A DNA stretch of 61,728 nt, filler included, from Hausera hauseri (GCA_046269625.1; 11 parts of 11 records of this genome joined end to end with filler, not necessarily neighbours in it); one strand, 5' to 3'. Positions 3,996 through 58,607 are shown, numbered from the whole stretch's first letter. A program made the numbers and translations. The notes: generated by a model from the sequence alone, not told the origin.

Positions 3996-4050
3996 CAAAC
4001 TGGTTCACTTCTCATTTCATACAGCTGCAATTTTACGCCACGAAAAACCC

Positions 4051-4541: not shown

Positions 4542-4804
4542 GTAAGTCCTGACAAAGAGGGAATGATCAAAGGTTTATAACTTCTCAAAGATTCTAATCT
4601 TGTCCAATTCCTTTTTGGGACCAGAAAATGTTCTGAGTTTGTTGGGATCCAGGGTGGTTGGTTCTCTTTTTGTCCAGCAGGGGGCGACTGGAGGCTGCCG
4701 CTTCCTGAGGGCGTATTGGAATCACCTACGAGTGATCTGTTCATCAGAGGAGGAGGATAAGAGGACGGGGCGGCCAACACTTCCCTGCCAGAGTGTTAAC
4801 GTAG

Positions 4805-15999: not shown

Positions 16000-16700
16000 C
16001 TTCCTCTTAAGCAGTCCCCTTTAGTTCTACCTGCAACATCCTCTTTGGTCAATTTCCCTTGTGTTGACTATTTTACCGATAAACAACATTCCAGTCATAC
16101 ATGGCTGGAAATCCATGCACAATGGCTAAAATCAAATATGATCACTGACCCTTTCTTCAAGGCGAATAGCCTATTAATACGTTTACCAGCTAGTCTTAAA
16201 TCAGTGCTCCCAAATCATTCCGAAATTTTTCAAACACTATTCAACGCCGTTCTTAAACTCACCGAGCCTTCTCTGGATAACATTATCAAGAAATATTTCA
16301 ATGATAACACCATAGGCACTTTAAAATCATCAGAATTTATTCATACCGCACTAACTCAATTGAGTACTCTTGGCGTTAATCAAGCAAACAACGCCGATTT
16401 ATTACGCAGATATTTTCTGCAGTCGTTATCTAGAGACATACGTGCACTGTTGACTATAGTAGAAGATACATCTTCACTAGAAAAACTAGCACTACTGGCT
16501 GATAAAGGCCTTGAGAAATTACATGCATATACAGCCCCATAAGTAGCCGCTATGGTACAAACACCAACAACTCAATAGTTTAACGACATATCTAATCTGA
16601 ACTCCCAGATAAATTCTTTACGTGCCGAAAACGCTAACATACACCAAGCAAATTCTGTACTCACGTCAAAAATCGAAGCCTTGACCATGCCTAGACGGAA
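16000..16700 (+). pseudogene. gag: Gag fragment of the same CsRN1-type family as 137..1050
   Basis: DNIIKKYFNDNTIG..LSTLGVNQANNADLLRRYFL..LEKLALLADKG aligns with the contig-1 gag. Confidence 0.85.
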
Positions 16701-23038: not shown

Positions 23039-23567
23039 TCAAAGTTCCAGTAATGGTCGACTGCGTTTAGAATAAAGTACATTTTTGACAACGTCAATAT
23101 GTGGGTAGAATTCAATAATAAAATCCACTTCCAGAACTCTCTTTACGTGGCGTCCTATGCGAATAATTTGTTGTTTGTCTTCGTAATTGGAGACCCATAA
23201 ACATAAACGATCTGTCATCTTTCTTACGTTGACAACTCCTCCACACACTATTTCCGAATCTGTACCACATTCTTCTCCAATCAAAAGCATTGTCAGATTT
23301 TCCCAGAATCGATTGATTAGTAATGACCTTGTATTATTTTTAAATGTGACCTGCCAGCTTCCACCACATCGATTGTCTGGATGTTCCCACATTGGCTTAA
23401 TGTTGCGTCTGAAGAGATAATAATCACATCCGGTGGGTAGAACAAAAGGAGGAGTAATGTGGTCTATTAATCGCCAGAAATCCTCAACCGTGTTAAAGGT
23501 TTCAATTAAATACAGACTGTCACTCCATTCCCGATTTGGATCTCGTTTGCAGAACCAAAGGCTCCAT
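23039..23567 (-). CDS. eIF4E: Eukaryotic translation initiation factor 4E (class I), main/last exon
   Basis: WSLWF..REWSD..FNTVEDFW..DYYLFR..IKPMWEHPDNRCGGSW..FWENL..GGVVNVR..RLCLWV; all eight conserved Trp present; AG acceptor at 23569-23568. Confidence 0.95.
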
Positions 23568-24870
23568 CTAAAATATGTTTCACGTTCGTGAATTCATGAA
23601 ATTTAGAAACTTTACTAAAATAATATGCGGGAAAAAAGTTGTTCACAAGGATATATAATTATAATTATAGTAAATGTACAGCTCATTCCCGGATTACTTG
23701 TTACACAAAATATTTGTTCATGTGAAATACTGATGTAATATCAGTGAAATTAACAGCATTCAAAATAAAATCCACAATAGTTTTATATTTTGTGGGTTTC
23801 ATTCAACCACTTTTTAGCTTGATATAATCGTCTGTCTACCGTTGCAATATAAGTAATAATTGAAAAGACCTAAATTCAACGCATCTTCTGGAACAATATT
23901 CTAAATAAAAATTTCAAGTAATAATATCTTTTGTATTTTTGACTTTTACCTTTAGTTGCTGAAATAATTTCTTTAAACCAATATTCCGGATGTCACATTT
24001 ATTTCCTTTTTAAAATACAACAAATACGCTTATATGTTAATGGTTGATTAGTCAGAATCGTAAATCGCCCAATTAGAAATTAGACATTCAATATAATTAA
24101 GATATTTGTCACATATTGTTTGAGCTCTATTTAATCTAAGAATGTAAAACCAATTAGTTTGATGGATTTTAACAATTTCTAATTGATTCCGTGGTACGCA
24201 ATCACAAACATCATACCAGAACGATGTCATGTTTTGCACTTTTTACTTATCCAAATAGATAATTTGTTTCGTTTAATATATCTGTAGTAACCAAAATGAT
24301 CCAAATTGGACAAACTGTTAAATAAATATGTAGTATATCTATAATTTGTTTCTTAAAACACCCGCGTCGTATGCCTGATATATGTATTCCTTGTGGTATG
24401 ATTGATGTACGAGTGAATGTGGAGAGAAATAAGCATGGGGAAGTGTGGTATTAAAATCGAGTAATTGAGTAAGTTAAACTAAATAATTATTCACATTTTA
24501 ATTAGACTTAAAAATTGAAAACCAAATGCAATGTTTACACATTCAACCTAATCTGTAATTAATATGATCGGAATAATTTGTTACTACTCAAGATTAATTG
24601 CCAAAAAGCCCAGGAATCTGAAGAGCTGTAATTGATTTATCTACCAGAAAGAATCAAATGTATCTGCTACGGTTACAAGCATGGTAATCTTTAAATGCAG
24701 TCAAATAGAGAATGAGATGACTAATAAGTACAATGAAAAGAATATCCCGTGATCATAATTTGCGCAATTCAGAAATTAAAATGTGTAGATATGTGATGCT
24801 TTAATTTTCTGCTGGTCGCTCTGTCAAATTGTCAAAATAATAATTTTGAAAGATTGAGCAACACATCTGT

Positions 24871-25780: not shown

Positions 25781-28700
25781 TTATATACAGTAATGTCCAT
25801 AAGCAACACTCTAATTTTTCTGAAGCCGCTTTCTCTTATCGTCTAACGGGTCCAATGCTTTCTTTTGCTGTTTATTGTTATAAACTGATGATTTTTTGTT
25901 CCGATACGCTCCTGGTCGACTGTTGTTCCATGAACGTTTTCATAGGCTTGGAGCAAGTTTTCAAACTGTAAATCTGTTTGCTCCAGACTTACGCCTTTGC
26001 ATTTCAATACGGACTTGCTTTGCGTTTTCAACGCGTAAAATTTCGGTCTTAGAAAAATTTCATCTTTGTACTCAATACTTCCTTTGCTCTCATCTTTAAA
26101 CTTACCTAAACTATGATATTAGGGTCGCTAGTATTATAATTCAACGTGTCCAACTCTTCATTAGAAATCATTGATGTCAAGAGTTGTGATCTTAAATCAA
26201 CTCCATGACACTCAAGGAAAAGCTATCCGTGTCACCAGTGATGATATTTAACTCACAATTAAACTGGTGTCTATACTTATCCAGTTCGATGAAATTAACC
26301 TCATACGTCCGTAACTTGGAAAGATCAAGTACGGCCTGACCGATGTATGAGGAACTATCTAGTGTATCTGTGTCCTTATCGAGGAGAACAGCAACCAGAT
26401 CATCAGCAATAATGATACTTTCTTTGAACTGAGCTCTTCTGGCATGTTACAGGCTTTTTTGCATTGTTACGAAGCCTCAAGTTAGACCGTTTCATCAGAT
26501 TTTCCACTGTTTTTCAATATAAACTGTTATTTTTGAGCTTAAAAGAGTCCTTTTCGAAAGCATTTTTAGCAGAAGTCCTCTTTGCTGTATTAAGGTTGAT
26601 GTAGTCCTTAAAGATAGCCTTGATCAAATTCAACTGCTTGATGTACTTTGTCAACTACAGCGCCTAACTTGATGTATAGCTGCAAAAGGCTATAGTGTAT
26701 AACGTAGTTGGACTTTCATTCATCGGGTTGCAGCAATTTCTTTACTTGTGAACCAGGAGGGCATTGGTTGATTGGAGCTAAAGGCAGTTGGTCTAACTTA
26801 TCGTATTTATCAGCCGTAATGCTCAAATCAACTTCGAAGACTAGACCACGTTTCTGTGTGACAATGTCGACAAAAGGCAATTGTGAAATCAGGCTGTTTA
26901 ATCTATCCTCATTGTAAATCCAAACCAAATTCGCAAATGGCAAAGGTTGAGATAAAGCCCAGCTGTACAAATTATTCACATCTATATGCAAGATAGTTGT
27001 GTTTTCATCAGCGGTAACCCTATGCTTATTTACAAAAGTCATGTCACGGCGAATACCAAATTGGAAAAAAACTATACATCTCAGGATCCTGTATAAGCTC
27101 AATCTTACAAGGACTCGTTTTCAATGCAGTTGCCCAAGATAAACTGGGAATAGATACGAAATTAACCGCTTCTAAGCCATCCTCAAAAATATCGCCTAAC
27201 AAGTATACATCTAGTTTCATGTATACTAACATGTAATCTAAAGCGACCTACATCTATATCTTTACCAGGAAAGTTGTGTCTCCTGATAGTCGCTGTCACT
27301 AGCACCATCCCATTTTGGTGATAATTCGGAAATTAAATGCAAGTCAGTTAACGATTTGGCTGCTGTGTATGGAAAAATGCCTTTACCTTTAATGATATCA
27401 GATGGAAAAGCTGTTTCGGTGAATGGGTAACAGTCTAAATTAAGGGTCAGGGTCTTCAGTGAAGCAGGTAAAAACTGAAGCGTGTCCAAAAGCAAATTGA
27501 AACAGACTTTTTACCTGAAAATCGTATCTTTGCCTGCATAGTCAGGAATTTTTCCGTTGTTTGCGAAATGATACTTAATTCCCAACTTCCGAATTTACTT
27601 AATGCGTGCTTTAAAATATGATGAAGATCATATCCACGCAAATTATGGAACACAACAGGTAAATTGTATCTAATCTGTCCAGCCAAGTTACATTTACTAC
27701 ATTCTGGGCCTAGGAATTTACCCGTAACATAGCAGTGATCTCGAACAAATTGAGAACCGTTTTCATGGCAGAGGTAACAGTATGTGGCGTTTATAAACTG
27801 AAACCATTCAGCTGATGTTAGTGGGTTCATTGGCTTTTTTGCATTTTCGTACCAGGGAAAAGCAAGCTTTTCACAATTTCCTCTAAACAAGTCAGAAACT
27901 CAACGATAAAATTTTCACCAACAAACTGCCTATATTTAATACACGTTAATGAATCTAACAAAAGACCGACTGCAGCAGGCAAATGAATATGCTTGACTTT
28001 ATCGTCAGGACACAGAACAGATTCAAAGTCAGAATATTTGACGAAAGGAGGACTTATAGATTTGGCCCAGTCCTTAAATTCACAAAACTTGTTTTCAGGC
28101 ATTCTGTACATAGTTGCGGATTTGGAAAAAGACATGCACATTGGTAAATGCGTAGCATAAGCAGTGTCAAGCCTAAATCCATGCAAACATTTCTCACACC
28201 AATGTTTTCGTTGAATTCTCATTCCGTTAGACCCTATTTTCAACAACCGATTAAGATTAGAAATTGCAACATAATGAAACTTGTCATCATTTTCTAAAAT
28301 TATCAAGTTCACTACAGTGCCATTCAGATTTTTGCTTCTATGCAGAATATCGACGAACGAATTTTTCAGTATATCTTCATCAAAATCCACATAATCCTCA
28401 TCGTGAAACAAGAAAACATTAATTGACAACTGTGAATTATGTCTTTCAAATTTACTTATGTTGCACATTTTCATAGGCATTTCATCCAAAGAATATCTCA
28501 ATTCACCTAAGTGTGAAACACAGTTATTTACTCTACATATATTACAGTCAATATGAGAACATTTGGTCACGGCAAGAATTGAGTACAGGAAATATAAATT
28601 GTCATTATTCTGTATATTAACAACAGCCATTGCATTTTTCAATGCGTCAGGTGTTGGTAGATAGGATTTTTCAGACAGATAGGGTAGTGGACGTGTTCTA

Positions 28701-28830
28701 ACTATATGAAAACAGTATATCAGAATTTTCACTACCTTTCAACCACTACCCATTTCGGAAAAATTCTCAACTTGCTCACGCAAAGTATCAGCTACCGACT
28801 GCGGATAAGTCTTTTCATAAGGGACAGCTC
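25781..28830 (-). pseudogene. Protein-primed DNA polymerase B of Polinton/adintovirus with zinc finger and endonuclease VII-like insert
   Basis: VVNIQNNDN; YSDFES (ExoI); CYLC..VRDHC..TGKF.G..C..CN; FHNLRGYD (ExoII); KGIFPY; DVYLL (ExoIII); DVNNLY (A); KLKNNSLY (B); GDTDS (C); many frameshifts. Confidence 0.95.
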
Positions 28831-28930: not shown

Positions 28931-29029
28931 TTTTTGCTGGGCACTTTTGGATCGGTAGTGCACAGTGCGCATTATCGATCGGCACAGGTGCAAAATCGAT
29001 TTATCGATTACCCCCTCCATTATTTTCAC

Positions 29030-29660
29030 ACTACTCTCCATGCAATCTGATATTTTGTTCAATAATGATTTTTCTGGTTTTGATCCTCCTTCTCCAACTA
29101 TATGGCCAAGGTAGGATACTGCATTTTGAGGCCATTTACATTTCTTCGGGTTTAATTTCAATCTTCTTCTGTTTTTGACGATACCATTACATCATCTAAA
29201 TATGCAAAGACATGGCCTTGTCCCATTAACATTTTGTTCATTATTCTTGTAAAAATAGCTGATCCGGTAGTAATACCGAAAGGCAGACGCTGAATTCATA
29301 AACGCCATTGTGTGTTTTGAATGCTGTTTTATATCGATCTTCGTCTTCAATTTCTACTTGCCAATACCCGGATAGTAAATCCAGAGTAGTGAACCATTAC
29401 GCTCCTGAGGGTCTATCTAGAGCCTCCTTTACTGATGGCAATGGGAAAGAATCTTCCATCATAAGATTATTTAATGCTCTTTAGCCAGTGCAGAATCGAT
29501 GTTTTGTAGTACCTTTTTTAACCTTGAGAATTGGTGAATACCAATATCTATAGCTGGGCCTAATAATATCGGCCTTAAGCATCCGTTCTACCCCTTTTGT
29601 TATCTTTGGTCCCAATGAATGAGGTGGAGGATACCATTTCCGCATCTTCTGATCCTCAAA
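29030..29660 (-). pseudogene. Reverse transcriptase, Ty3/Gypsy type
   Basis: FTTLDLLSGYWQV..DRYKTAF, LPFG, FAYLDD (29191-29202), LKLNPKKC..YLGHIV. Confidence 0.93.
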
Positions 29661-30129
29661 GTCTACTTCTTCATTCGAACCTGATTTTTTCTTAAGCGAA
29701 ATAATCACTTTTAATGTTTTTGCTTTACCGATATCTTTGTCGCCTTTAGCAATGATTGATTTATGGTGACACAGCTATTCATAAAATCGGTAGTAAGATT
29801 CAAGTAAACACTTAGTTTCAACATGAGGAGCATTATTTGCTATTCTGATCGGTACGCGACCGGATTGTACTCTTGTCAGTATATTACTGAGTATTATATT
29901 AGGATTTAATGCCTCCTTGGGTTCAAAATATAAAGGTTGATCGTCATTTTGTTGAATTTGCGCATAAATTATTATCGCTGTCCTCGGCAGAATATTTTCA
30001 TCTACTGGTATCCACACTTCTCCAAGTTTCCTATCCTTAGCCTTTTTTATGCCTTTATATTGTCTGATTTCTATTAATTTTCCTGCTTGCAAGTCAACTG
30101 CCATATTATGTAGTCTTTTCAGTAGATCA

Positions 30130-30410
30130 CACAATAGAACTACGTCGTCAGTTTATTGTTCCATAAATACAAATTATTGACAGAAAAGCTGTCCAACTAT
30201 TTGAATTTCTAGGTTCCATTTAAACATTGGTTTTGACATTTGGCCAAAAGATCCTGTACTTCCTGGGTCCATCGTAGATGGCGAATATAATTGTTCTCTT
30301 AGAGTTTGGGGTACTGAACCATTTTTAATGTAAGACATCTCAGAACCCGCATCGATTAATGCGTAAACTTCCCAGTCTTCAATAATGATTTTGGCGAAGG
30401 GTCTTCATAC
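30130..30410 (-). pseudogene. Aspartic protease
   Basis: RPFAKIIIEDWEVYALIDAGSEMSYI, catalytic Asp at 30351-30353. Confidence 0.85.
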
Positions 30411-30829
30411 TATTACTGTTCCAAAACAGTTCAATGCCGCTTTTGATCGTGTAGTTGCCGATATTTTATATCCATTGATTCAAATTTCCGGGGAGGATAC
30501 TATGTTTTCCGACAATTGTTTCCGTTTTCCGTTTGGATATAACTCATTGTTTCCGATGTCCAACTCTTCCGTTTCATGTGTACTAATTAATGGTTCTCGA
30601 TTGTTAGTTTGTGGTTCTATATTCCGGAAGGTTTGTAATCTTTGATTTCCCCAGACAGGCGGTCTAGCCTATATATTCCGAAGTTTTTTCGGAGACTACA
30701 ATATTCTGGGGTCATCCACGGGCTGTCAGTAACACATTTTCCGTAGGACTCCATAACGTTTTGTTCCTTCGTAAGGGTCTTCTAAACTAATTGTCATTTT
30801 ATAGATTTCTGTCTGATATGAACTCATTG

Positions 30830-31772
30830 ATCATTCGTCATCGTTTTGTGATACAATTCGGTTATTCCGACTTGCCCTTTATAACTGACGTAATCGTCTC
30901 GGTTTTTCAGGTAATCCTCAATCCGAAAATCCAGCGTTTCTAGCTTTTAAATATTCGCATTCATTTCCTTTTCGGCGACGATAAATACTTCATAATTAGT
31001 GGCGAACATCACCATTTCGCTGCGGGAGTTCATTTCTTAATAAATTTTAGTCCATACTGGTCGGCGGTCAATATAATAGGTGTATGGTGTTCTGCTATGT
31101 CCTCGCGTATCCTTGGTTAGTATCGGATTTATCTATAAATCGTTTTTCGATGGTTTCGATAAATTTCAATTCATTAATTTTGATAAAATTACAGCTTCTT
31201 CAAAAGGGAGGTTTCCATATTATTACAAAACTTCTGAAGGCACAGGTTCCATCTTGTAAATGGCATTTTTGATTCTCAATGTAATTTGGTGACACTATGG
31301 AACATTACTTTCTGTACCCGCATCTCCGATTTATAGAAACCTACGAACACTACATTCGATTCTAATCCTTTTCTGCTGTCGTATTCTGCTCAATTACAGT
31401 GTCCATTATGCATGTCTAGCCTTCCAACCACTACATTAAATGCTCTAATTATCTTTCCTGGTTGCATCTCTCATTCCATGCTATCCCATTTTACTCTTCC
31501 GGTTTCCCTGGCTTGCTTACAATGCTGGCGTTCCAAATTCACCGGGATTAAAGGCATCGTTGGCTTGATTATTGCATTAATCTACAGTGGAAAATGCTAC
31601 GGGACCGTCTCAACGTACATTCCATTCCATCCAAGGATATCAATTCTTGCTGTTTTCTTGTTTCCAGTTTGTGTGGTTTGGTGTCCTCGCATACTTTTAA
31701 ATCCATTAGAGAATATTTTGTCCTACTTATATGCTTCATTAATATCATCAAAGTGAGTAAGATAATTAACCA
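30830..31772 (-). pseudogene. env: N-terminal half of chuvirus-like glycoprotein
   Basis: Hydrophobic WLIILLTLMILMKHI, then SLMDLKVC..MECTLRRSRSIFHC..GQVGITELY; collinear with 55334-56352. Confidence 0.75.
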
Positions 31773-34700
31773 ATTAGATTCGCTTTTCCGGTTACTATTA
31801 TCCGTCGTTGTCAAATTGCGTAGCATATCTTCGAATCTATTTCTATTTCTAGAACGTTTGTCTTTTTCCTTATGGAATAGTCTCGACCAATTTACTTCGC
31901 AGAGTGGCTTTCTTGCAGCTCTTTGTGCTAAGATGGTAGCTATATTAATTTTATGCTCTCGACGGGGGTTTATTTTGAAATCTAAGTACAATAATACTTT
32001 TCTTAATTCTTCAGTGGTGTGTTCTACCGTGATCTTTTCGATCACCGATTCATAGGTTAACTTACTTTTTGATAGTTTAAAATGTGAACTTCTGATCATC
32101 TTAGCGGCACTGAATATCGCTCTATTTTTATTGTCTAATGGGTCGCCTCGAAGGCTTGAATAATTTACAATTCGTATTAAATTCTTCATTAATTCACTCA
32201 ATTCGTCATTGTCCGTGCCGAAGGTAGAAATCGACATCTGTCTTAATTCTCTAATCAACGCACCATTATAATCGGCTTCTTCTCTTGTTTTCTTAGGTCT
32301 ACCGACTGGGTGTTTCTGTCTTTGACATTGGTTATCGTTTCACTCAGGGGTACTAATTTCTTGTCGTATTGATTCTTGTCTTTATCCGTTTAAATATTCA
32401 AAACACATTGCAGCATCCCGGACTCCCATGATGTATCCTACACATTGTTCTGTCTTGGCCTTACGGGTGGCTTCTTCTTTAGTCTGTTCATTGGCTACTA
32501 TTACCACGATAGGATTTGATGCGTCGAGTATGATCTGAACGTCTATTGACTGTTCTAGATCGTCCAGTATTCTACCTCAAAAGTAGAATCTATAGTTTAG
32601 TTTATTCGTTCCACCATTGCTTATCAACCATTCTCTTACATCTCTCATGTAGGACTACGTAATTAATTCACATTCCTTTTCATCCATCCACTCGCATGAT
32701 ATTTTTACTTTCATCGTTACCTCGGGTATAGCCTTCACGATCTTAGCGTATTTCCATATTAAAAGTTTCGGCACCGCGCTAGAAATTGTGTTTTCACTAG
32801 ATAATTTAGTCAAAGTCGGAATGAGTTGTCTTAATTTGCTTTCGACAATGCTTACATTAATTAGTTCAATTAAATCCCTTTCAGTTAGCGCTGAATCCAG
32901 GAGCATCTCCACATTGAATCTTCTGTTATGTGGACACGTTTCTAATTCGTTTAGCTGTACCGGAGTCACAGAATTCTCGGCCGTTATTGCATCTAAATAC
33001 GCGTCCCATTCCGGTAAATTTCCAACGTCTGGAAGCCCATAGTCCGTCAACGTTGTGTTGAATCTGCACACATTTTCTCGGATTTCTTTCAATTTTTGCT
33101 GTATTTCTTTTATCTGCATAGTTAGGAAACCTATTCCGTTTCCACAGGCATAATGAATCATTTTCAGTAGTTTGGCTAGTTCTTTAGAATGGATGAGTCC
33201 CTTCTGGTGATAATGAGTTAGTTCCATGATTACATCTCTGCCATCTTGGCACCAATTCACGCTTATTTTTAATTTTGGACTCGGTAGAAGCATACTTTTT
33301 CCTATAAGTTTTAAGCTTTTTGGTTAATTCGTCTAACATTGTCGCTCTTTGTTTGGTTTTAATGCACGTTTCTTGGGCCTGTCGTATTTGAGGCATCCAT
33401 TGTCTCATCTTTTCATCAGTAATTTCTGTTATGTCTACTAAAAGAAAAGCTAGCTCATACATTTCATTAACGATTTTTGAGTCGGGATCTATCGCATCGA
33501 GCAATTTCTTTACGAACTTAGCTTCTGCAAAACTAAGATGAGGGTAGTTTCTTATTTTTTTCAACTTGGTATGACAGTTCTGATCTGTTCCAACCATACA
33601 TTCTTGTGGTTTATGTATGAATCTCATGGCTTCTTCCATAACCGTTTTATGTTCTGGACAGATATCTAAAGTTTCAATATCCTGGACAAAAATTTCGTCG
33701 GTAGACTTAGCTTTTAAATGTTGGATTCCTTCTAAACGGACATTCCTTATTCTTGGATAAAAATTGCAAGTCATATTCTGCTTTTTTGTGAAGTTTGTTT
33801 CTTCGATCATTTTATATATCTCTTCCAATATCGATACTTCTTGTTTCTTCTTCATAAAATTTAATCATCGTAATGCTTTGAATTGAGTCCGAATATCTAT
33901 TTCCGCTTGGATTGAATCTAAGTTACTGCACTTTCTTCTAATTGTTTCTTTACAGAAGGCTCCCTTTCTAGAAAATCTTACTAATTTACTTAGTCTCGCT
34001 GCTAATTTGGACTATTTATGCAGTTGATTCGCCATCACAGGTTTTACCAATATCGCCTTGTCTAGCAATTTATAAGCATCCTTTAATTCATCATCTGCAC
34101 ATTTTATGAAATTCATAATCCGGCTGACATAATCGAACTCATCCTTATATTCGTCAAATTCTATGATACAAGCCTTTATTACATACTTGGTTTCCGCGTT
34201 ATTCATAAACATAATTCGATTCCTCAAGCTACCAATTTATGTTCTCTTTTCATTCTCTATTTTAACACTATCCTCTAAATTCGCGCATTGCCTAGGCACA
34301 GCGAAGGAAATTTTTATCATTTCCATTAAAGGAGGAATGTCTACCGATTCTATAGCCAATATTTCTAAATCAATATCACTGCGATCGCAAACCGGTTTTA
34401 CTCTAAGTCGATTAATCATTGTACATCGAATTTCATCCATCAAGTGTTCTAAATTACGAACTACTCTCTATTTTTAGATTAGCTTCTAGTGTAGATAATA
34501 ACGTTTGAGCCTTGGCTACTTTCACATCAACACTATCTTTTCTTTTACTCCATCCTTCCGAGAATTTGACTCCACTTTTAATCCATCATTCTAATTCACG
34601 TTTCCATTTTATTAACGGTTGGTACCTCTTCAGGTTGTCCTAAATCGATTGCTTCATCGAGCTTTCCTTCACTGCATAATTTTAAACTTTTATGTAACCT

Positions 34701-35530
34701 CTCCGCAAATTGTTGCTCTTTTCCGCATATATCTACTTGTTTGTTAATCTGTTTAAGTCTTTCTAATTTTCATTTTCTTTAATACTTTGGCGTTTTTCCA
34801 CAAACGTCGAATTTTTTATTTTTTGGATCGAAATCATCAATATTTCGCGTTTCTTCCTCACTAGTGGGAAGTGGGCAAATCTCGTTAATATCGTTAACCG
34901 ACTCTACATATTCTTTTACTTCGATAGGTGTAAATTGACCAATTTGTGACGCATTTAAGGTAGGCTCTACGACACTCCCTACAGCGATGTTCGTATCTAT
35001 CGTTTCTTCTATCTGCTCTTTAGTTATTTGCGAACGTGAACGACTTCTACGTTTCGTTTTTAATAAAGGGCTGCGGCTTCTATTTTTCGTAATTTTAAGT
35101 ATTAATGGCTCCATAAATTCTTTTTCTTCTACCTCATCTTCGGTAACCTTGTCTACTTTTCCAACCTTGAACTCGGGCTCTGCATTTAAGTCGACTTCTG
35201 TCGAAGTTCCTGGTTTATCTGCTGTTCTATTACTTGTTAGCACACTCTTTTTCCGTGTCATATCAATTCGCTTTGGTGCTATCGCATATTCACATTCACT
35301 TTTTGTTTCTGCTAAACCATGATACACTTCTAATAGCCTTAATTTAACTGCGTATGTTTTAGCCATCAAAATTTGTGGGTTAATAGTCTCAGGCTGAGTA
35401 TCTAGAAAGTTTTGCAAATTTTGTATGTCGATAATAGTGCTCGTGTCTCCACGATCACCATACTTTACTTCCAAGTTTTTCTTCACTTTAAGCATACTAA
35501 TCTTATTAGGCTCAGTAAATGAAACGCTAC
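31773..35530 (-). pseudogene. Large unknown helical region X between gag and glycoprotein
   Basis: Chain of same-strand ORFs 34779..35675, 34237..34443, 34012..34227, 33184..33855, 32655..33293, 31569..32258 separated by stops and frameshifts. Confidence 0.65.
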
Positions 35531-36566
35531 GTGGATTGGGGTATGACCGTGCAATGCGTCCTTCTCCACCGCAGGTAAAATAAACTAAATTTCCATTTCT
35601 GCCGACTCTCTTCCGGCAGCCTCCATTCACAGGTGACTTGGACCTATTTGTGCTCCTATTGTCCTGGTTTGACAACCCTTGCGTAATATTACATTTCGCA
35701 GATTACTATTATTTTGACTATCCTCGTAACGATTTCGATAGTTAAAACCTTTATCCGTATTTGGATTCGACTTATTTGTATTTCGATTGTTAGCGTAATT
35801 ATTATTTCGGCTATTCCTGTAGTCGTTATTATTCCTATTTTCACAATTTCTACTTCCATTAAATCGCCTATCATCTCTTCCGCGATTATCGTTCAATTCT
35901 CATCGCCATGATCGTTCCGATTATTATTTCTATCATTTCTATCATTGTGTATGGTATACCTATCGAGTGTCATTTCTAAGTCTTGGACCAATTGCAGAGT
36001 TTTCTCGAAATTCTCAGGTCTGGCCAAAATCAACTTTTTAACTAAATCTCGGGACCAAATACCATTAATTAATTGAGTTGTCATTATGACGTCTAAATCT
36101 GGCGGAGTTGCCTTTTCCGAAGCATCGCGTTCTGCGTCAGTTTTAGCTTTTGCTACATTAGCTATCCTCAAGGTACTTACATAACTATTATCGAGTTTTT
36201 TAATGCAAATGCAAACTGGGTTACCTATTCACCCTTCTGTTGCACTCTACTTTGAAATGCCATAAGCTTCTGTTATGGAGTTACTGTCGGCAATAATTTA
36301 CGGTATAATGTTCCTACCAAGGAGGACCAAGATTTTTTTTCATCGTTGGTGAGTTCACTGTAAGCATCGGCGGCTAGATTCTTTAAATGTAATGATAAGC
36401 GTTTTATTGTTACTTCAGGAGTAAGACTAGCACCTTCTGCGTGCAATTTATAAGTTTTCAAGAATTCGTTAAGCCCGTCCGGGTCTCCGTCAGATGCCTG
36501 CAGGTTTAGAGAATCGAACGTGAAAATGTCCAACTTCTGCGCTACTGGTGGGTTATTTGCTGCCAT
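35530..36566 (-). pseudogene. gag: Gag: capsid, N/R-rich linker, degenerate CCHC knuckle
   Basis: LSLHLKNLAADAYSEL..SWSSLVGTL; RVQQKGE; QLINGI; knuckle YFTCGGEGRIARSYP at ~35540-35585. Confidence 0.85.
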
Positions 36567-36948
36567 ATTATTTACGTTATTTAGCTCTAAATTTGCTTTA
36601 TTTACTTTAGTTTACTCGAGTGGAATTTTAAACTGTTTATTTTGCGCGACAACGTCTAGTTTAATTCTATTCTCGGAATTTGAACGTTTATCTACCTTTT
36701 GTGTTTCTCTATATATATTTCGACGTGTCTCACGTATAGGTGAATTGTCTTTTAATATATGATTTATTTCTGACCTATCAATGTTTGTTCTCTCTTAAGT
36801 TCTGCTTACTTATCCCCGTAAAAATAGCCTATATACCCACATTTTAAATTCCGATTCTGAATAAATCAAGTTACTCGATGTGATGGCGCTGTTCGCAGGT
36901 ATGTAATTATTTAACTTTGATAAGTAAAGTCTAGCAAGGTACAGACTG

Positions 36949-36965
36949 TCCTGCTAGGGTCGTCA
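36949..36965 (-). promoter_or_regulatory. Primer-binding site, tRNA-Arg-like, degenerate
   Basis: TGACGACCCTAGCAGGA 2 nt inside the LTR end, resembling the complement of an invertebrate tRNA-Arg 3' end. Confidence 0.6.
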
Positions 36966-36967
36966 AA

Positions 36968-37728
36968 TGTTATATATTGGGGTAGCCCTACCCGTCTTCC
37001 ACTATATAACAGTAAGTTTCACTTAAAGTTAAGATTTTCTGTGCAGGTCGGTCTACCGTACTTGAATAGACAGACTGTACTCTAACGATTTAAAGATTAC
37101 TATTCTGGTATATGCGTGCGATCCTGTGCCAATAATTTTGAATAATTCTCACTCTTAACTATGTGATTTTACACTCTGATTTTAATCTTAATGTTGTCAA
37201 ATCACCCTTAAGGGGCGAAGGAAAACTATGGGTAATTTAGAAACAAGATAAACTTTACCGAATACTATAATTTCTGAAACGATAACACGAACTATAGAAT
37301 CACCAATTTGATAATAGTCAATAACTGAATTCTCGAACAAATGTTTCTCCAATAGTCAATAAATTTCAACTCACACGATCAATTAGACTCCAAAAATTTC
37401 TGATTCTGCCATGATTTTACAAGCCTTATATAGTTCTATCAGCTCGGGTAATTTCTTTTCGCCCACGTTTTCTGTTAATTTCTCAATAATTTGATTTATT
37501 TCAATGCCGATAATTCGCCAGAGCAATAACTAGTTTTCGATAATTTGACGTTTATAATTCATCAACGATAATTAAACTAACTAATATTTCTTTCTAATAA
37601 TATCTAATTTCTGTTCTTACTACAATTTTCTGTTTAATCAATCCGCTAATTCGCTATGTACAAATCTGCCATTTCGACTATTTACAATTTTGCCATTTCA
37701 CTATTGCATGATACCAGTTATTACAACA
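36968..37728 (-). repeat. 5' LTR of copy A (761 bp, TGTT...AACA)
   Basis: Shares start TGTTGT, internal CCCTTAAGG..GATTTGAC and end AGGGC.ACCCCAAT.TATAACA with the other LTRs. Confidence 0.88.
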
Positions 37729-37825
37729 TACCCACAAAATCAGTAAAATAAATTATGAAAGTGGTACTAAATCTTCTAGAGAAATAAATTGTGCAGAGGA
37801 TCAACATAAAAATTCGGCCGTCGAA

Positions 37826-38761
37826 GTGTCGATGACCAAATCGGAAGTCATCGACACTCAGGTGACCCATTTAATTGGGTTACCGCGTGGTTTATCTTTA
37901 TATTTTTATGTAAAAAATTCGTCAGCAGAGGAACGAGCCGTTGTTTTTTATAATCACCTCGAGCGTCACCTTTATAATAAGACCGCGAGGCTTTTCTTAC
38001 CCAATGCAGCATCCATTCCAAATAATCTTAAGGGATACAAAGTTCAACAAAGAACGTTCACGATCCTAAAAATGGAAGACCTTTGTTGCGTTCCCTAGAA
38101 ACCTTATTAGAATATACCTCAAAACTCGAGGGTATCACCATATCCGTTGTACGAGGAAATATCCAATTAGTAGTTAAGGATGAACAAAAAAGAGAAATCA
38201 CAAAACTATATCTATAGAGCCTAAAAATACCTTTCACCTTTACCAAATTCTAAGATATAAACGAAAACTGTTAATTCGATTAGAAACTGAACGAGTCCTA
38301 TTAGGCATAGAAGCCACCCAACAAGAAAATATATATACCAACTAACACCCCTAAACCAAGGTTTGAATTAATGATAGCAATCCCAAATATAAGAACGGGA
38401 ATTTCTTTTAGACGGAATTCAATAGTTGCAGAAAAAGGCCAATTAATAATAGCAACACTATTAGCCTTGCAATCCCAAAAGATAGCATCTTCCATAGAAA
38501 TTGCCATAATTGACCTACAAGGAGTAACAATCAAGAACCAGCTAATAACCCCGCGCGAGAAGATTGAAAATTATGATTCTCATATAACAGGCCTCCAAGA
38601 AACAGACGTTAGAGGTAAAACGGACTATTATGAAGCCCGTAAAATTATACTGAGCCTGATAAAAGGAAAAATACTCGTGGGATGCCAATTGGCCTATGTT
38701 ATAGAGCACCTGTTCCAAATAGATCTCCTATTTGTCCAGGGACTAAGAGACCTAATGTATT
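37826..38761 (+). pseudogene. Divergent paralogue of the accessory pseudo-exonuclease gene, outside the LTR on the opposite strand
   Basis: LFLPNAASI..ILKMED matches VFIPKSKSI..ILKVNE; IAIIDLQG..ITP..IENYDSHITGL..LIKGKILVG..LRD is REX4-like without D-x-E. Confidence 0.7.
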
Positions 38762-38861: not shown

Positions 38862-38966
38862 AACCTGACAACTACAGAACAGGTTATTCTGTCATTCAAC
38901 AAAGAATTGGTTTTGGTTTAAAACAATCCTTTGTTGTAGGATTAACCTTTATATTCTTTTTTTCAG
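38862..38966 (+). promoter_or_regulatory. Two hairpins, branch point, polypyrimidine tract and splice acceptor (copy B)
   Basis: aacctg..caggtt; aacaaagaatt..aatcctttgtt; ttaac; ttctttttttcAG; conserved at 58499-58607. Confidence 0.7.
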
Positions 38967-38967
38967 A

Positions 38968-41386
38968 TTGGTAAGTAACCAGACCGAAATGGATAGTCGA
39001 ATTACTATCGACGAGTTCATGAAGACCCAGACAACAGTATTCATTCCCAAGTCAAAGTCGATCTACCGATTCATAAACGACGCTTTACGGGCAAAAACGC
39101 AAATTGAGATATTAAAAGTGAACGAAATCCCCAACGATCTTAAAACTATAACGGAAGAAAACCGGTTCGTTTACCTTTACGCCTGGAGAGAAAACGAACA
39201 AGCAAAGGCTTATTCTATGAAAGAATTGATTCGGAAACAACCAGACAAAATCCAAGAAGTCTATCTGCATCTGGCTGAAGGAGAGCTATATTATCGGATC
39301 AACAACCAACCTTGGAATTCCCAAGAGGGACGACAGTTCAGATTTAGCACGTTTAGATTTAAAGGGTCGAAAAGTATAGATTGCAATTTGGAATTTAGAG
39401 TAGCAGCTCTTCCTACCAAAATCATGATAGAAGTAACTTATAGAGAAAACGATAAACCCAGTTTGCCTATTCTGAAGTTCGATCAAATCCCAACAGAAGC
39501 AGAAATAGACGAACACTCTCAATCATACAGGATGGTAACAGACGGACGTAACGTGAGAATTCTAGCAACAAATTGTGGTAGAGGAGACGACGGATATGGA
39601 ATTCCTATCGAAATATCTGTTAGAGAAAGAGACGGAGCCGAACTATACTCCACTATTATAAATCCACGAAAACGAGTACAAGAGTCATACGTGGAGGTAA
39701 CAGGGCTAAGAAAAGAGCAGCTTATGAATGGAAAGGACATTAACCAAGTTCGTTATGAATTAGAGCATTGCCTCTACGGATGCATGATAGCAGGATATCA
39801 TGTACGGCAGGAAATAAAGCTATTAGGGATATCCGATGCAAATATTGCCGGATTTAGGGAAATAGCTGCCCATCCAGTGGTCCAGAAAAGGATGGAGGAA
39901 ACCGCAAAAGGCAGGAATCAGTCAACGGCGCCTGAAGCTTTTTTTAAATTGATGATAGAATCAATGATTCCCAACCCAAATAGAATTCCAAGATTTTTAT
40001 CGGCAAGACAACGATCCCGACACTTACAAGAAATTTACAAAATGCTGAAATGGGAACACGAATGGATACCTCAAAATCCCGAGTATAACCTACGATGTTC
40101 GCTAACACCTGAAGCAATCGATACCAGATACCGTCGGAACATCAAACCCTATTCTCCGGTTAGAACCGTTCAGCCAATAGGAGAAAACAGTCTCTCAGTT
40201 ACGATTCAGAAATCAATTGAAACAGGAAATAAAGAAGCTCAGCCACCGACGACGGGAAACCAATCAACAAGGATTGCAAAGAAACGAGACGAGCCCAAAA
40301 CGGAAATTTTAATTAAGAAACCTAAGTTAGAAGAGCAACCCAAACCCAAAAGAACCTTGTCCATTTATGACTATTTATTTAAGAAAAGGAAGGTAAACCC
40401 CGAACAAGAAATAGGAAGACAACAAGACAGGCCAGGTACATCAAGGAATATAAGTTCGGACGGAAAGAAATTTAAAAGCCCCGTAATAACCGAAATTAAC
40501 TCCTTAATCAAAAGGAAAGACAAAGGAGAGGTACATTATAAAACAGTTCAAGACTTTCCCAAAATGCTAGTAACTACGGAATATTATAGTAAAAAATGAT
40601 CAAGGAAGCGGTGTTCTATGTGAAGATGACACCGGCAAGAGAAGTCTTTGAAAACACGTACATTTTGGAAAACCCCAAACTGGGAAAATACCTCACATCA
40701 GTATTTTGCTCCAAAAGAACGGGGAAAATAGTAGTTTCCGTAGACAAGCAGATTAGGATTCTGCTAAAGAAACAATATCAAAAATATAAGGTAGAAGGAC
40801 AGATTCCCGATTTAGATCAAGAATTTATGGCGGATTGAACGTTAATCCAAGTAGATTGCGATCCGCGGAAAAGTTCAGTGAATCCCAAACAGAAAATAAT
40901 CCACGGATATCTATATCAAGATGGCGAAGGAATCACCTTTGAGCCAATCGAGTTAACCATTCAAGTCGATTTAGATCGAGACGATTGGGGAAAGAAGAAA
41001 ATGAATGCCCTGTATGCGAAGCCAATCTACAACAGAAATACGTAATACTAGATAATAAGAACTGCCGTCACAAGTATTGCAGAGATTGCTTGGAGAAATG
41101 GACCCTAGACAATGGGAAAACCACGTGTCCGGTATGCCGTGCGGAGGCTGCCGAGTTAAAATATTATTCAAACGGGAGCTACATTCGAGTGGTCAGAATA
41201 CAACCCCATTACAGTTATAACATTGAACCAAGACCTTCAACAAGTCAAGCTATATCAGACTCTCTATTGGACTTGCAAGAAAGAATGAACCAGTTAAGAG
41301 GAACGAGACAATTGGGCGCCATCTCTCCTGACGCAATAGGCACATCCGAGGATGTCGTTCAGGGAGGAGATGTTGTGAAAGACTAA
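38968..41386 (+). pseudogene. Accessory gene: N domain - inactive DEDDh (REX4/ISG20-like) exonuclease - linker - unknown domain - RING-HC finger
   Basis: 543-aa ORF (ILATNCG..LYSTIINP..VTGL..CMIAGY), 40596..40838 and RING CPVC..CRHKYCRDCLEKW..CPVC in 40985..41386; copy C reads through the 40596 break. Confidence 0.8.
41361..41370 (+). promoter_or_regulatory. Polypurine tract
   Basis: AGGGAGGAGA directly before LTR; same tract at 60781. Confidence 0.85.
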
Positions 41387-42171
41387 TTCTAATTCAACTC
41401 GAATCGATTATGAGAGAAAAACTAAATTGCTGTTGGCTTAGTTGATTGTGTACATATAATTCAAAATTGATTCATTGTAAATAGAATACAATTAGAAAAA
41501 ATTACGCGATATTTACAGCCATATAATGCAGTGCATTTTAATCAAAAAAATAAACAATGTTTTGAAATCGCGGAAATTGCCAAATAAATACCGATAATGA
41601 AAAATAAATTGAAAAAGCACCTGCTTCGAACTATAAATACGAGATCGAATGAGAAAGAAGGAGAACAATTTTTGATCGACTGTAGCGTCGGTTAAACCTG
41701 CGATTTTGAAACTTATTTGCGAAAAGTTTTTCCTCGACTGTAGTGTCGAACAGCTAGTTATTCATTGACTATAGAGTTGATTGGTGTTGTGAAGATTTCA
41801 GTGATCCATTCAGTGATATTCAACAGTGCTAAAGACATTCATTGATTGCTGTGATCCTTTGTGTTGGCTATTACATTGGTATATTATTGATCCTTTTCTA
41901 AATTCCCACTATAGTTTTTCATCGGCCCTTAAGGCTGATTTGACGACCGTAAGAAGTAAAATTTACTTAAACTCTTATAGGCACGAGAACGCTATTTAAC
42001 CGTTGCACAAGACACGACACGCAGTACACGCAGTTTTTTTTTAAAAATCAATATACATTGGCACATTCGTTTAACAAGAACGTTAAACCGAATCTGCATA
42101 AGAGACTAACTTCCAGAGTAAACTACTGTTATATAGCGGAAGATCGATAAGGGCCACCCCAATCTATAACA
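41371..42171 (+). repeat. 3' LTR of copy B (801 bp)
   Basis: TGTTGTG...CTATAACA, TATAAA ~41632, preceded by PPT, homologous to the other two LTRs. Confidence 0.9.
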
Positions 42172-42263
42172 CTACCACTACTGCAAAAAGTAGCACATGT
42201 TTAGCCCCAACAAAATTTTTTAAAAGTAGTTTATGAACGACTAGTGCTTATTAATACTGAAAT

Positions 42264-43170
42264 TTATTGCTCTTTGCTATAATCCGTTCGATCAACCTGT
42301 CCATTGTTAACATCGTGTGGGATATCACTTAGACTTAAAACTACGACACATGTTTTAGGCATAATATCAACCAAGCACCGTAAGTCTACCGCTGTTATAA
42401 TATAAAACCACGAGTTGATGACAGCCGCAATCTGTTCATACTTGTTCGATGGCCGATTTGCCGCTATTGTTCGCTTGAGCCTTTCCCAGAAGTTTTCTAT
42501 CGGGTTGAGATCCGGACTGTTGCCTTGCCAATCAAGCAATTCAATCCTGCTTTGTTTAAACCAAGTTAAACATTTCTTGGCAGTGTGATACGGAGTACCA
42601 TCTTGCAGGCAAATGAACGAAACTCTTTTACCGCATATGTTTCGAGTTGAAGAACCTCCTTGATATACTTGTCAGTGATTCCGGTTCCTTCAAGAACGTG
42701 CAGTCATCCAACGGAATCCCTTGACATGCAGTCTCACATCATTATGCTCAATGGATATTTCATTGTGTCAGTTGTGCATTCTTCACCCGGTCGTTGACGA
42801 ACATAGAGCAGACAATCGCTGCAGAAAATCAAAATGCGCGTCCAATCGCTCCACAGAACTTTTTTACATGGCAAGTCTGTCCAGCTAATGTGCTCTATGA
42901 TCTACTGCAGACTTTTAAGACTTTGCTTCACATTGAGAAACACTTTTTGAGAAACCTGTGTCCGCAGGCCTGCCGTCACTAATCTCCGGCGAATTGTTCG
43001 GTTTGATATTGCCACCCGGTGACATTCAGCGACTAGTTGATGTCAACAGCAGTGGCCTTAAGATTCCATAATGCTTGATTCCATAGTCTGAAGTGTTACA
43101 ATTCGACGATCAGTCTGTGACTTGTTACTTTCTTCTCGTCTCTTCCCTTCTTGTTTTTTCATGGATCCCC
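42264..43170 (-). mobile_element. Tc1-like transposase relic
   Basis: QDGTPYHTAK and LDWQGNSPDLNPIENFW motifs. Confidence 0.88.
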
Positions 43171-43619
43171 TATAAACTAAATCATTTGAGGCAACACGGA
43201 GGCATCGAAATGGTTGACAGCGGTGTATGACAGTTTCATCAATAACTGAAAGGACTTGAAATTCAAACAATGACGAAATCAGAGATACTTCAGATATCAA
43301 GCATTATCTTGTGATAAAAATGAAAACAATCTTATCGTGTAAATGGAATAATGATAATATACGTTGTGAGGATATAACCGAGAACTGAAATTCTAAATTT
43401 AAATTACAGACATTTTTATATTTTAAAAATTCGACCATGGATTTAATTCAAAAACGTAATATTAAAAGTATCATTTAATTTTTGAATTTTTTGAAAATTT
43501 GTTTCCAAATGAGTATTTTGAGATACAATAAAATTTTCAACTGGTGTTACTTTTTAATGAGTAATTACAAACGACAAAATTATGCTTTGACGGACATACC
43601 AGTGAGCGGGGATTTTCCA

Positions 43620-44200
43620 ACTCTACCCAAGCTGGGCGACGATGTGGAAGGCGTGGATGCGCCCGCGGCCTACATGGCGACTTACGTCACAATGGGCATT
43701 TTTGCGAACCAATTATTGCCCACCAAATTCAGGAAAGGAGACGACTTGGAGAGGTTCATTAAAGGATGTGAAAAATTCTTTAAATATATGAACACCCCGG
43801 CGGCAAAGCGGGAAATCATGGTTGAATGCCTCTTGAAGGAAGAAGCACTAGAAAGGTACGAGGCAGTAGATGCGAAAATAACTGTATCTCAAAACAGCCT
43901 ACGGAAGGCTTTCGCCCGATCCTCAACGCTGGGCGAAGATCTGAAAGAGGCGCTCGAGTACAGAATGAATGGAGCGGAACCAGGGGATTACTTCGAGGCC
44001 CACAAGGAACTTCTTTATAAAGTTTTGAAGCACAATCTTTCACGCGAGACTCTAAAAGAACTATTGTTCCAATGTTGTAACAATAGAGAGATTAGCAGGG
44101 AAATATGTCTCATTGACAAACGAGACGCGGAAACCATAAAGGCGAAAATACGGAAGATGCACGAAGTAAAGATTAAGACAGAAGTCAACACTGTCAAAGA
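43620..44200 (+). pseudogene. gag: Gag capsid fragment of another LTR retrotransposon
   Basis: PTKFRKGDDLERFIKGCEKFF..LLKEEALERYE in ORF 43482..44306. Confidence 0.65.
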
Positions 44201-44405
44201 GTTCTGTAACAGTCTTGTTGTAAGTTATATTCATACTACCTTTCAATGTCACCGGTGCGTAGGGAAAGTTAAATTCCGTCAGTGCAACCTCCCATTTTCA
44301 AGATAGGTCCAAAGGATTGTTCCAATCTACAACGTATTTACTGGCTGAATTGTTCGGACGAGTCATCTGACAACTGTTGCTCGGCAACACCATGTAAATA
44401 CTCAT
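44200..44405 (-). pseudogene. Polinton minor capsid protein (penton) copy 2, N-terminus only
   Basis: MSIYMVLPSNSCQMTRPNNSASKYVVDWNNPLDLS*KWEVALTEFNFP. Confidence 0.8.
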
Positions 44406-44411
44406 TGTTTA

Positions 44412-45333
44412 TTATCGACGACGTCGAAGATGTAATGTCAAATGTGTCGTTGACCAAAACAGAAATTTAATTGATTCCCAAAATTTATCAAGCATATACA
44501 CGGAAATACTGTGCACAATATTGTGAGTCAATGATAAGTACATGGGCCTCAGCATATTAATGCCAACAGTTTCACCCGATGTTTTGTACGTGTCAGAATC
44601 CAGGTCAATAGAAGCCAGTAGTTGTTTACGTTTTCCACCAACGAGTACGGATTGGGTTAAGTCCGTTAAAATGTTGATTTTATGAAACGCGCCATAGAGT
44701 TGCGGTTTGTATTTGGCATCAACAGATTGTTCAATAATGTTTTGATAGAATTCGGGTTTCGAAAAACCCAGATTCCGAGCCAATAATTCATCAAAGGAAA
44801 AATATGTTACATTATCATGTAATGTAAGCGAAATATGGCCATCTGCGTTTATTTCACATGTTTTTACAGCTAATGTAGCCGTTTTCTTGACGTTTTCACA
44901 CAATTCCAGTTCTGTTTCCATTAATAAATCGTGTGGTATAATATGAGAGGAAGACTGATTTTGACTTAGTCCACTTTACTATAATATTGGATTCCGCATT
45001 GGATGAAAGGTCCAATTTTTCACCAGTTATAACATGCCCACCTAGCCGTAGACGTTTTGAGTGTACATTGACTGAATGAAAACCTCATGCATCATCATTA
45101 GCTATAGCATTAAACTGTATTTCAATCGGATTTCGATGCATTAGTTTCGTACGGTAGTTTGAAAGATAAGCATAAACTGAGAAATGTCGCGAATAATTGC
45201 GAAGAGTGTATCGGTTATTGTGTCGGATTGCCCGCAAACGACTTGAAATAGGGTATGTTTCTTGTCGGGTAAAGTAAATACCACTGTTCTGACGTATTGT
45301 CATTGGTGAAAATGTAAATGCGAATTCCGTCAA
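44412..45333 (-). pseudogene. Polinton minor capsid protein (penton) copy 1, 5'-truncated by contig end
   Basis: Starts LTEFAFTFSPMTI; LARNLGF; ILTDLTQSVLVGGKRKQLLASI..PMYLSL..SISVYMLD..LTLHLRR. Confidence 0.85.
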
Positions 45334-54695: not shown

Positions 54696-55333
54696 AGTCC
54701 GAGATGCTGCAATGTATTTCGAGTATTTACAAACGGATGAGGACAAGGAACAATACGACAAGAATTTAGTGCCACTGAGTGGAATAATAGCCAATTTTCC
54801 AAGGCCGAAACGCCCAGTCAACAGGCCTAAGAAGGCGCGAGAAGAAGTTGACTATAACGGAGAATTGATTAGAGAGTTTAGACAAATGTCGATTTTAATG
54901 AAGAATTAAACGAATTAATGAAGAATTTAATACGCATTGTAAATTATTCAAGACTTCGAGGTGACACATTAGATGATAAAGAAAAAGCAATATTCAATGT
55001 AGCTAGAATGATGAAAGTTCACGTTTCAAGTTATCAAAAATTAACTTAACCCATGAATTGGTAATCGAAAAGATCATGGTAGAAAACATCAATGAAGAAT
55101 TAAGAAAAGTATTACTATAGTTAGCTATCAAAATAAACCCTGATCGAGAGAATGAAATTAATAGAGCTACAAGCTTATCACGAAGAGCGGCAAGAAAGCT
55201 AACCTGCGAAGTAAATTGGTCGAGACTATTCGACAAGGAAGAAGACAAACGGTTCGGTAATAGTAATAGACTCGAGGATATGTTACGTAATTAGGTAACA
55301 ACCGGTAATAATAATCGGAAAAACGAATCAAGT
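54696..55333 (+). pseudogene. C-terminal part of unknown region X
   Basis: VRDAAMYFEYL..QYDKNLVPLS..DYNGELIREFRQMS..LMKNLIRIVNYS matches 31773-32425. Confidence 0.75.
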
Positions 55334-56932: not shown

Positions 56933-57086
56933 ACCGTACGAAGTTACCAGAGCTACGCCAACCACAGTATACACCAACACTAATGGAAAGGAAGAGGTCA
57001 TGTCAGTACAAAGAGTTGTGAAGACGGAGATATGGCCCAATAAACGTTACAATTTACGCCAACGCGAGATAAAACTTCCTCAATAA
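56933..57086 (+). pseudogene. Integrase C-terminal GPY/SH3-like tail
   Basis: PYEVTRATPTTVYTNTNGKEEVMSVQRVVK..RYNLRQR. Confidence 0.65.
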
Positions 57087-57099
57087 TTGCTAGACCAAT

Positions 57100-58455: not shown

Positions 58456-58498
58456 TTGGAACTAACGGAATTGGAAACCCCTATTGTTCCGTATGATA

Positions 58499-58607
58499 AA
58501 ATAACCTGACAACTACAGATCGGGTTATTCTATCATCTAACAAAGAATTAGTTTCATTTTAAAATCATCCTTTGTTTTAAGATTAACTTTTACTGTTTAT
58601 TTTTTAG
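58499..58607 (+). promoter_or_regulatory. Two hairpins, branch point, polypyrimidine tract and splice acceptor (copy C)
   Basis: aataacctga..tcgggttatt; aacaaagaat..atcctttgtt; ttaac; tttttttAG. Confidence 0.7.

Follow-up and report, generated by a model that had tools for sequence, protein, structure and literature searches.

Three records of the Hausera hauseri genome, referred to here as copies A, B and C, carry the remains of a single LTR element family. We conclude, with a probability of roughly 0.7, that this is a decayed and internally deleted Ty3/gypsy family comprising gag, an additional region X, a chuvirus/gB-type glycoprotein, protease, RT and a probable integrase tail, and that its ancestor likely encoded one polyprotein. 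The window, that is the whole 61,728 nt stretch of DNA that was analysed, consists of 11 H. hauseri records joined by N spacers. Table 1 shows the features of the three copies.

Table 1. Features of copies A, B and C, with positions counted from the first letter of the window.
Feature	Position	Strand	Remarks
Copy A	28931-38761	-	One record of the window
Copy A 5' LTR	36968-37728	-	TG...CA; then primer-binding-site-like stretch
Copy A gag	35560-36566 (outer limits approximate)	-	Capsid-like region and degenerate zinc knuckle; stops and frame changes
Copy A region X	31780-35500	-	About 1200 codons
Stop-free frame, X end through signal to glycoprotein start	31569-32339	-	256-codon ORF
Internal signal-peptide-like hydrophobic core	31740-31775 (copy C 55334-55369)	-	From hydropathy
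Copy A glycoprotein remnant	30818-31724	-	N-terminal part only, no anchor; profile columns 61-388 of 715, in four pieces
Linker	30405-30817	-	Likely native cytoplasmic tail between lost anchor and protease
Copy A protease, spacer, RT	28931-30404	-	Asp codon 30353; cut by record end
Copy B	38862-45333		One record of the window
Copy B purine tract and 3' LTR	41371-42171		
Copy C	54696-61728	+	One record of the window
Copy C signal and glycoprotein ectodomain	55289-56931	+	Small internal gap, frame change; stops just before anchor
Copy C probable integrase C-terminal tail	56904-57068	+	Ranked first among 2466 tiles (E 0.09)
Copy C second membrane protein	57113-58455	+	Signal-like stretch 57113; ORF 57325-58455; anchor ~58345-58420; from hydropathy
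DEDD (DnaQ/ISG20-like) exonuclease-like domain	C 58844-59371 (B 39493-40050)	+	First acidic motif lost
RING finger	C 60430-60580, approximate (B ~41000-41140)	+	Broken in C
Copy C purine tract and 3' LTR	60793-61728	+	LTR cut by record end

The LTRs of the three copies are about 0.8 kb long and 71-73% alike overall; the 5' LTR of copy A aligns with the 3' LTR of copy B at 73% over 695 nt and with that of copy C at 72% over 726 nt. They show the features expected of Ty3/gypsy LTRs, having TG...CA ends, a primer-site-like stretch in copy A, which its position and motif suggest to be the primer-binding site, and a purine tract in copies B and C, where the 14 nt preceding the LTR start are 79% and 86% purine, respectively. 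No record contains both LTRs, the 5' one being in copy A and the 3' one in copies B and C. Aligned over 1675 columns, copies A and C share 75.6% identity. In a public run (X1), 36% of the sampled words of copy A were present, and 22,934 contigs aligned to copy A, covering 30 of 30 bins. Since 18,376 of these contigs are less than 95% alike, run X1 contains many diverged copies of the family; it may itself be the source sample and so adds no independent support.

The glycoprotein of copy C matches PF24664 (Monjiviricetes_fusion) with an E of 4.9e-15 over positions 6-345 of 653. Word-indexed protein searches with the glycoprotein recovered none of 3319 and none of 4103 candidates, and a later full HMMER scan gave 47 matches (best E 2e-43) that are 20-39% identical to it. 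These are referred to as relatives, and the 15 longest were scanned for domains. No solved structure was matched when searched by sequence with the glycoprotein. A phage locus that came up twice in locus searches (L001, L002; 38% over 73 aa) was judged from its ORFs to be a chance match. One relative is filed under a bacterial MAG, which is probably contamination.

Against a 715-column profile built from 11 natural relatives, copy C aligns at columns 16-393, 417-520 and 502-594, and its match to the relative P0042 ends at residue 698, the anchor of P0042 occupying residues 695-728. Changes between copies A and C within the glycoprotein are in excess at third codon positions (27:19:47 and 21:22:51), indicating that the two copies diverged under coding constraint. 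It can be seen that neither retains an intact ORF with an ectodomain flanked by signal and anchor: the signal is kept, the anchor is gone and there are many stops. The anchor was lost by deletion in both copies, and its absence and the stops reflect decay, the relatives having both signal and anchor. The junctions downstream of the glycoprotein are thus deletion junctions, and the glycoprotein-protease junction of copy A is non-native.

The order of genes that these deletions have obscured is preserved among the relatives. PF24664 was found in all 15 of the longest, with a protease downstream in the same ORF in 10 and RT reached in five; a Gag or CCHC Pfam match lies upstream of the glycoprotein in three. 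Single ORFs in relatives run through signal, glycoprotein, anchor, protease, RT, RNase H and integrase, the signal being internal, up to 1340 aa into the ORF, and the anchor following later. P0048 (2627 aa) passes from a CCHC-like start through glycoprotein, protease, RT, RNase H and integrase to a terminal membrane protein, and P0090 (4844 aa, a cluster member) has the same gene order. The arrangement that the original prediction had named as speaking against it, a contiguous gag-PR-RT-IN with the glycoprotein after IN, was not encountered, RT or integrase lying upstream of the glycoprotein in none of the 15 longest relatives. Because single ORFs of relatives place the glycoprotein ahead of protease-RT-RNase H-integrase, copy A is not a nested insertion, and the layouts of A and C can be explained by two different deletions from one gene order.

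A chance mosaic, in which a chuvirus glycoprotein fragment or another element became nested in an ordinary gag-pol element, would account for the abrupt end of the homology between A and C (at 30830 and 56353, respectively) and for a linker without any match. However, copy A has lost the C-terminal part of the glycoprotein, which explains the abrupt end, the X-signal-glycoprotein segment is common to two copies that diverged under coding constraint, and the same order recurs in the single ORFs of relatives. The mosaic is thus largely refuted and we regard it as very improbable.

Reading from the 5' LTR to the record end, copy A contains LTR, primer-site-like stretch, gag, X, signal, glycoprotein, linker, protease and RT. 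The order gag-X-glycoprotein-linker-protease-RT, which had been proposed for this copy, is borne out by domain matches and by the relatives. Within gag, 36491-36198 matches residues 27-126 of P0046 (36%, E 2e-13), and gag also matches P0050 (E 5e-5); both of these relatives have the glycoprotein further along the same ORF as their Gag. The zinc knuckle was recognised by eye. Two in-frame stops lie near 34780, on the gag/X side, with many breaks elsewhere in the copy, and the distance from the gag start to the signal is approximately 1600 codons. No X ORF scanned against Pfam gave a match above the curated cut-off, and region X had no match at E 0.5 among 50 relatives. Between C and A, changes in X at 54696-54895 are distributed 6:10:22 over the three codon positions, a bias that indicates coding constraint. 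In the part of X closest to the signal (X-near, 55030-55285) they are distributed 14:13:13, with the third-position bias absent.

From the end of X, an uninterrupted frame in copy A leads through the signal into the glycoprotein. The original prediction had described an ORF at 31569-32258 here; the stop-free passage holds, the frame running from 32339 to 31569 with 32258 an internal TTG, but the ORF is damaged, copy A having deletions around 31728-31718 and again around 31659-31655 when compared with copy C, and its frame being broken near 31576. Within copy A 28931-36700, no 12-mer other than the signal core reaches a mean hydropathy of 2.4, and all 11 relatives compared have a hydrophobic stretch ahead of the glycoprotein start. 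The matching frame of copy C has one stop in X-near and one in the signal region, neither of which is common to A. Over 407 aligned A/C codons the X-signal-glycoprotein frame has five stops in C and four in A, none of them shared, while the other two frames have 32 and 24 shared stops.

A Met approximately 17 codons before the hydrophobic core is kept in both A and C and, with the missing third-position bias in X-near, would suit a glycoprotein made mainly from a spliced or subgenomic RNA, with the core acting as an ordinary N-terminal signal peptide. Against this, X-near in the glycoprotein frame is stop-free in A and has only the unshared stop in C, compared with seven shared stops in each of the two other frames, and the signal is internal in relatives. 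We consider translation from such an RNA distinctly improbable, and favour a frame that is continuous from X into the glycoprotein.

The further proposal of a Gag-X-G-Pol polyprotein draws its support mainly from the intact relatives, the glycoprotein-protease junction of copy A being non-native. The linker at this junction gave nothing significant by blastx against the relatives. In copy A, 155 codons separate the glycoprotein remnant from the protease Asp; the distance from anchor to Asp is 107-189 aa in 10 of 12 relatives and 343 and 359 aa in the remaining two. A hydrophobic-Tyr-Pro motif lies 63 aa before the Asp in copy A and 33-92 aa before it in 8 of the 12. Because both its length and this motif agree with the relatives, the linker is likely to be a native cytoplasmic tail. 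Downstream of it, copy A matches RVP (E 0.011) and RVT_1 (E 1e-4 and 7e-8), and its protease-RT segment is collinear with residues 1110-1629 of P0042 and 1097-1576 of P0048.

The glycoprotein remnant of copy A ends in a frame other than that of the protease, and the protease frame contains five stops between the remnant and the catalytic Asp. This could indicate that the gag-env-pol order is native but that Pol was reached through frameshifting or read-through beyond the glycoprotein tail, or that Gag and X-Env occupied separate frames, and it is in keeping with the three ORFs arranged GAG-ENV-POL described in the available text of PMC13524379 and with the lack of a Pfam protease in 5 of the 15 long relatives. 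However, copy A is so full of random breaks that frame differences weigh little, and in 10 of the 15 relatives the ORF continues from the glycoprotein into the protease. As for the other five, the ORFs of four stop inside the glycoprotein match or soon after it, and that of P0050 terminates in a protease-like motif. Separate expression of Pol therefore appears unlikely, and a single polyprotein remains the preferred reading.

The RT identifies the type of element. All 40 of the proteins matched by the copy A RT carry RVT_1 and RT_RNaseH_2 (PF17919), and those that are named are K02A2.6-like or Tf2-type. PF24664 is listed in none of these 40 gypsy polyproteins, and a glycoprotein match was found in none. 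On the basis of these domain matches we assign the element to Ty3/gypsy (Metaviridae). Of the order protease-RT-RNase H-integrase, copy A shows protease-RT; RNase H and the integrase core do not occur in the three records, and the relatives have the full order. Among the long proteins compared, P0048 is the top BLAST match of the copy A RT (47%); a quick RT tree (47 rows, 126 columns) places copy A on a long branch whose position is poorly resolved.

How the ancestral product may have been processed can be outlined from what is generally known of ER translocation and of retroviral proteases. Gag and X would be made in the cytosol, after which the internal signal would insert the chain into the ER membrane and signal peptidase would free the N-terminus of the glycoprotein in the lumen. 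The anchor would halt transfer and send the chain back to the cytosolic side. There the protease, held at the membrane by a 110-190 aa tail, would release itself together with RT, RNase H and integrase. Past integrase, another signal would direct a terminal FN3-like single-pass protein to the lumen, and particles carrying the class III fusogen would bud. Continuity into Pol is seen in relatives and not in A, B or C, no copy in the window spanning the stretch from anchor to protease; we infer that the family had one frame through Pol, and the processing and particle formation outlined here are likewise inferred.

Copy C provides the 3' part of the family. Using an integrase-tail profile made from four relatives and searched on 2466 six-frame tiles, we obtained the probable tail listed in Table 1, in agreement with the claim that the glycoprotein of copy C lies upstream of the integrase tail, although at E 0.09 the tail itself is probable only. 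Ahead of this tail, copy C lacks the anchor, protease, RT, RNase H and integrase core. A generic profile of integrase tails, drawn from 20 of the 40 gypsy polyproteins, missed copy C, but it was too weak, since even the integrase tail that an ordinary element has within record 1 was barely found. The region 56656-56931 was rejected as an integrase tail as it belongs to the glycoprotein.

Beyond the tail, copy C encodes a second candidate membrane protein. Four relatives also continue past integrase. Three of them, P0042, P0048 and P0090, end with a protein of the same position and topology as that of copy C, and a Cys-x-x-Leu-x-Pro-x-x-x-Tyr motif is common to all four proteins, the pairwise scores between them being weak; P0053 has a post-integrase signal without a sequence match to the terminal proteins. 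The copy C ectodomain is beta-rich, with Atlas leads of 0.81-0.86 to the FN3 clan. Two structure models were made, both poor (pLDDT 43.5 and 48.5), and that of the ectodomain, of low confidence at pLDDT 43.5, matched tandem FN3 chains with an E of 3e-4 and a TM of 0.22-0.25. With an FN3-module profile from three relatives, copy C ranked first of 2466 tiles at E 0.09, a chance match following at E 0.14. The ectodomain may accordingly be described as FN3-like, from two weak sources, Atlas scores below 0.9 and a fold search with a low-pLDDT model. In the literature searched, the available text of PMC6431247 and PMC13524379 included, we found no description of a second post-integrase membrane protein.

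Two further domains follow. A profile of the exonuclease-like domain from copy B, copy C and a third copy in the window matches ISG20L2 (E 2.8e-6); copy B alone gives E 0.05, with four of four matches DnaQ-type, and copy C alone E 0.48. The first acidic motif is lost, and the DEDD exonuclease is probably inactive. The RING finger matches zf-RING_2 at E 1.8e-9 in B and E 0.014 in C.

Herpesvirus gB obtains its receptor-binding partner function from gD and gH/gL. By analogy, Gag-Env-Pol gypsy elements might encode a two-part entry apparatus within one four-pass polyprotein, a gB-type fusogen before Pol and an FN3-like single-pass receptor-binding partner after integrase, to which the A/B/C family would add a catalytically dead DEDD domain and a RING finger as likely counters to host RNA silencing. 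We offer this as a tentative suggestion that is more doubtful than probable.

The same glycoprotein class is found in Anakin BEL/Pao elements and arthropod chuvirus glycoprotein EVEs, as described in the available text of PMC7642597 and PMC10084718. In contrast to Anakin, the A/B/C family has a Ty3/gypsy-like RT and its glycoprotein precedes pol, which rules out this identity. An endogenous chuvirus genome was also rejected, with no L or N gene among 21 ORFs scanned and with gag and protease as the neighbours of the glycoprotein. Some nematode elements reportedly contain one continuous gag-env-pro-pol ORF. In non-canonical nematode endogenous retroviruses the env/pol order was flipped after a metavirus captured an RNA-virus glycoprotein (Sacco et al. 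2022, as cited in the available text of PMC13524379); the A/B/C family resembles them in this flipped order. The rotifer LTR elements Vesta and Juno have a DEDDy exonuclease ORF3 3' of pol (PMC5408684, available text), but there the exonuclease keeps its catalytic residues and replaces env, whereas B and C lack the first acidic motif and their family has env as well. Troyka (PMC12440569) was dropped as a comparison, being without env in the available text.

The gag-env-pol layout is real, but it has been in print since 2019. Its proposed status as a new retroelement genome plan cannot be upheld, since an in-frame env between gag and pol has already been published, and in view of the same gag-env-pol elements the assumption of an invariable position downstream of pol for captured envelope genes is not supported (PMC6431247, PMC13524379). 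In the available text of PMC6431247, the giant gypsy-like planarian elements Burro/GYPSM1 encode a single polyprotein in which env lies between gag and pol in the same frame, and the Burro env matches fusion glycoproteins of arthropod and fish mononegaviruses. Like the A/B/C family, Burro has a long extra region between Gag and Env and a spacer between protease and RT. It is longer than 30 kb and contains modules of the MATH, Ubl, Bcl-2, BIR and ankyrin types, of which Pfam found none in the X ORFs scanned, where decay lowers sensitivity; its description in that text names neither an exonuclease nor a second membrane protein. With no MATH/Ubl/Bcl-2 match in X and with LTRs of only about 0.8 kb, the sequences indicate that the family is not Burro itself.

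Another close description is that of the GAG-ENV-POL 'ancient errantiviruses' with an HSV/gB-type ENV from Nematoda, Bryozoa and Platyhelminthes (PMC13524379, available text). The A/B/C family shares their Ty3/gypsy pol, gB/chuvirus-like env and gag-env-pol order, env lying between gag and pol in copy A and before the probable integrase tail in copy C. Those elements are intact and mostly multi-copy, whereas copies A, B and C are dead and have suffered deletions; the same text does not describe 3' accessory genes or state the frame relation of the ORFs. The three copies thus contribute a divergent family, and no new plan, to a known but little-studied genome organisation, and their remaining interest is in the genes after integrase. 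How gB-carrying elements enter cells without the helper glycoproteins of herpesviruses is a gap stated in PMC13524379, and the second membrane protein at the 3' end provides a testable lead on this question.

In copies B and C, two decayed members of the glycoprotein-bearing Ty3/gypsy family, the 3' accessory ORF encodes a DEDD exonuclease-like domain, from which the first acidic motif has been lost in both copies alike, and a RING finger is found downstream of this domain in the accessory region. The first may be a pseudo-enzyme that binds RNA and the second a ubiquitin ligase. A third DEDD fragment is situated beyond the 5' LTR of copy A, on the strand opposite to that element, which argues that copy A is probably located within or next to another element bearing such a gene.

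Features identified in the window, with coordinates and strand
Feature	Window	Strand	Remarks
FN3-like single-pass membrane protein, second in element	57113-58455	+	Copy C; 3' of probable integrase tail
3' accessory ORF, DEDD exonuclease-like domain	38869-40599	+	Copy B
3' accessory ORF, DEDD exonuclease-like domain	58720-60285	+	Copy C
Third DEDD exonuclease fragment	38311-38760	+	Pfam RNase_T, E 1e-4
Ordinary Ty3/gypsy gag-pol element, decayed	1-4050	+	
Family B DNA polymerase-like frames, decayed	25800-28738	-	
Intronless eIF4E-like ORF	23039-23593	-	Same record as polymerase-like frames
Intact ORF, 486 codons	20472-21932	-	

Elsewhere in the window, the ordinary gag-pol element is without an envelope and its gag is similar to positions 16050-16551. 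The polymerase-like frames are, by their motifs, probably of Polinton type. A Pfam scan of the 486-codon ORF returned zero families at cut-off. What we take to be a likeness to a vertebrate ryanodine-receptor exon (4226-4552, + strand) suggests that the records combine more than one organism.

The FN3-like protein of copy C has counterparts by position in the related glycoprotein-bearing polyproteins P0042, P0048 and P0090. Several relatives, including P0042, P0045 and P0090, have at least two protease-like domains between glycoprotein and RT; P0042 and P0090 have an additional protease-like stretch 3' of integrase, and ankyrin repeats are present in P0090. In the gypsy polyproteins P0036 and P0037 (2983 and 3668 aa), a 3'-5' exonuclease (PF01612) is placed between RNase H and integrase.
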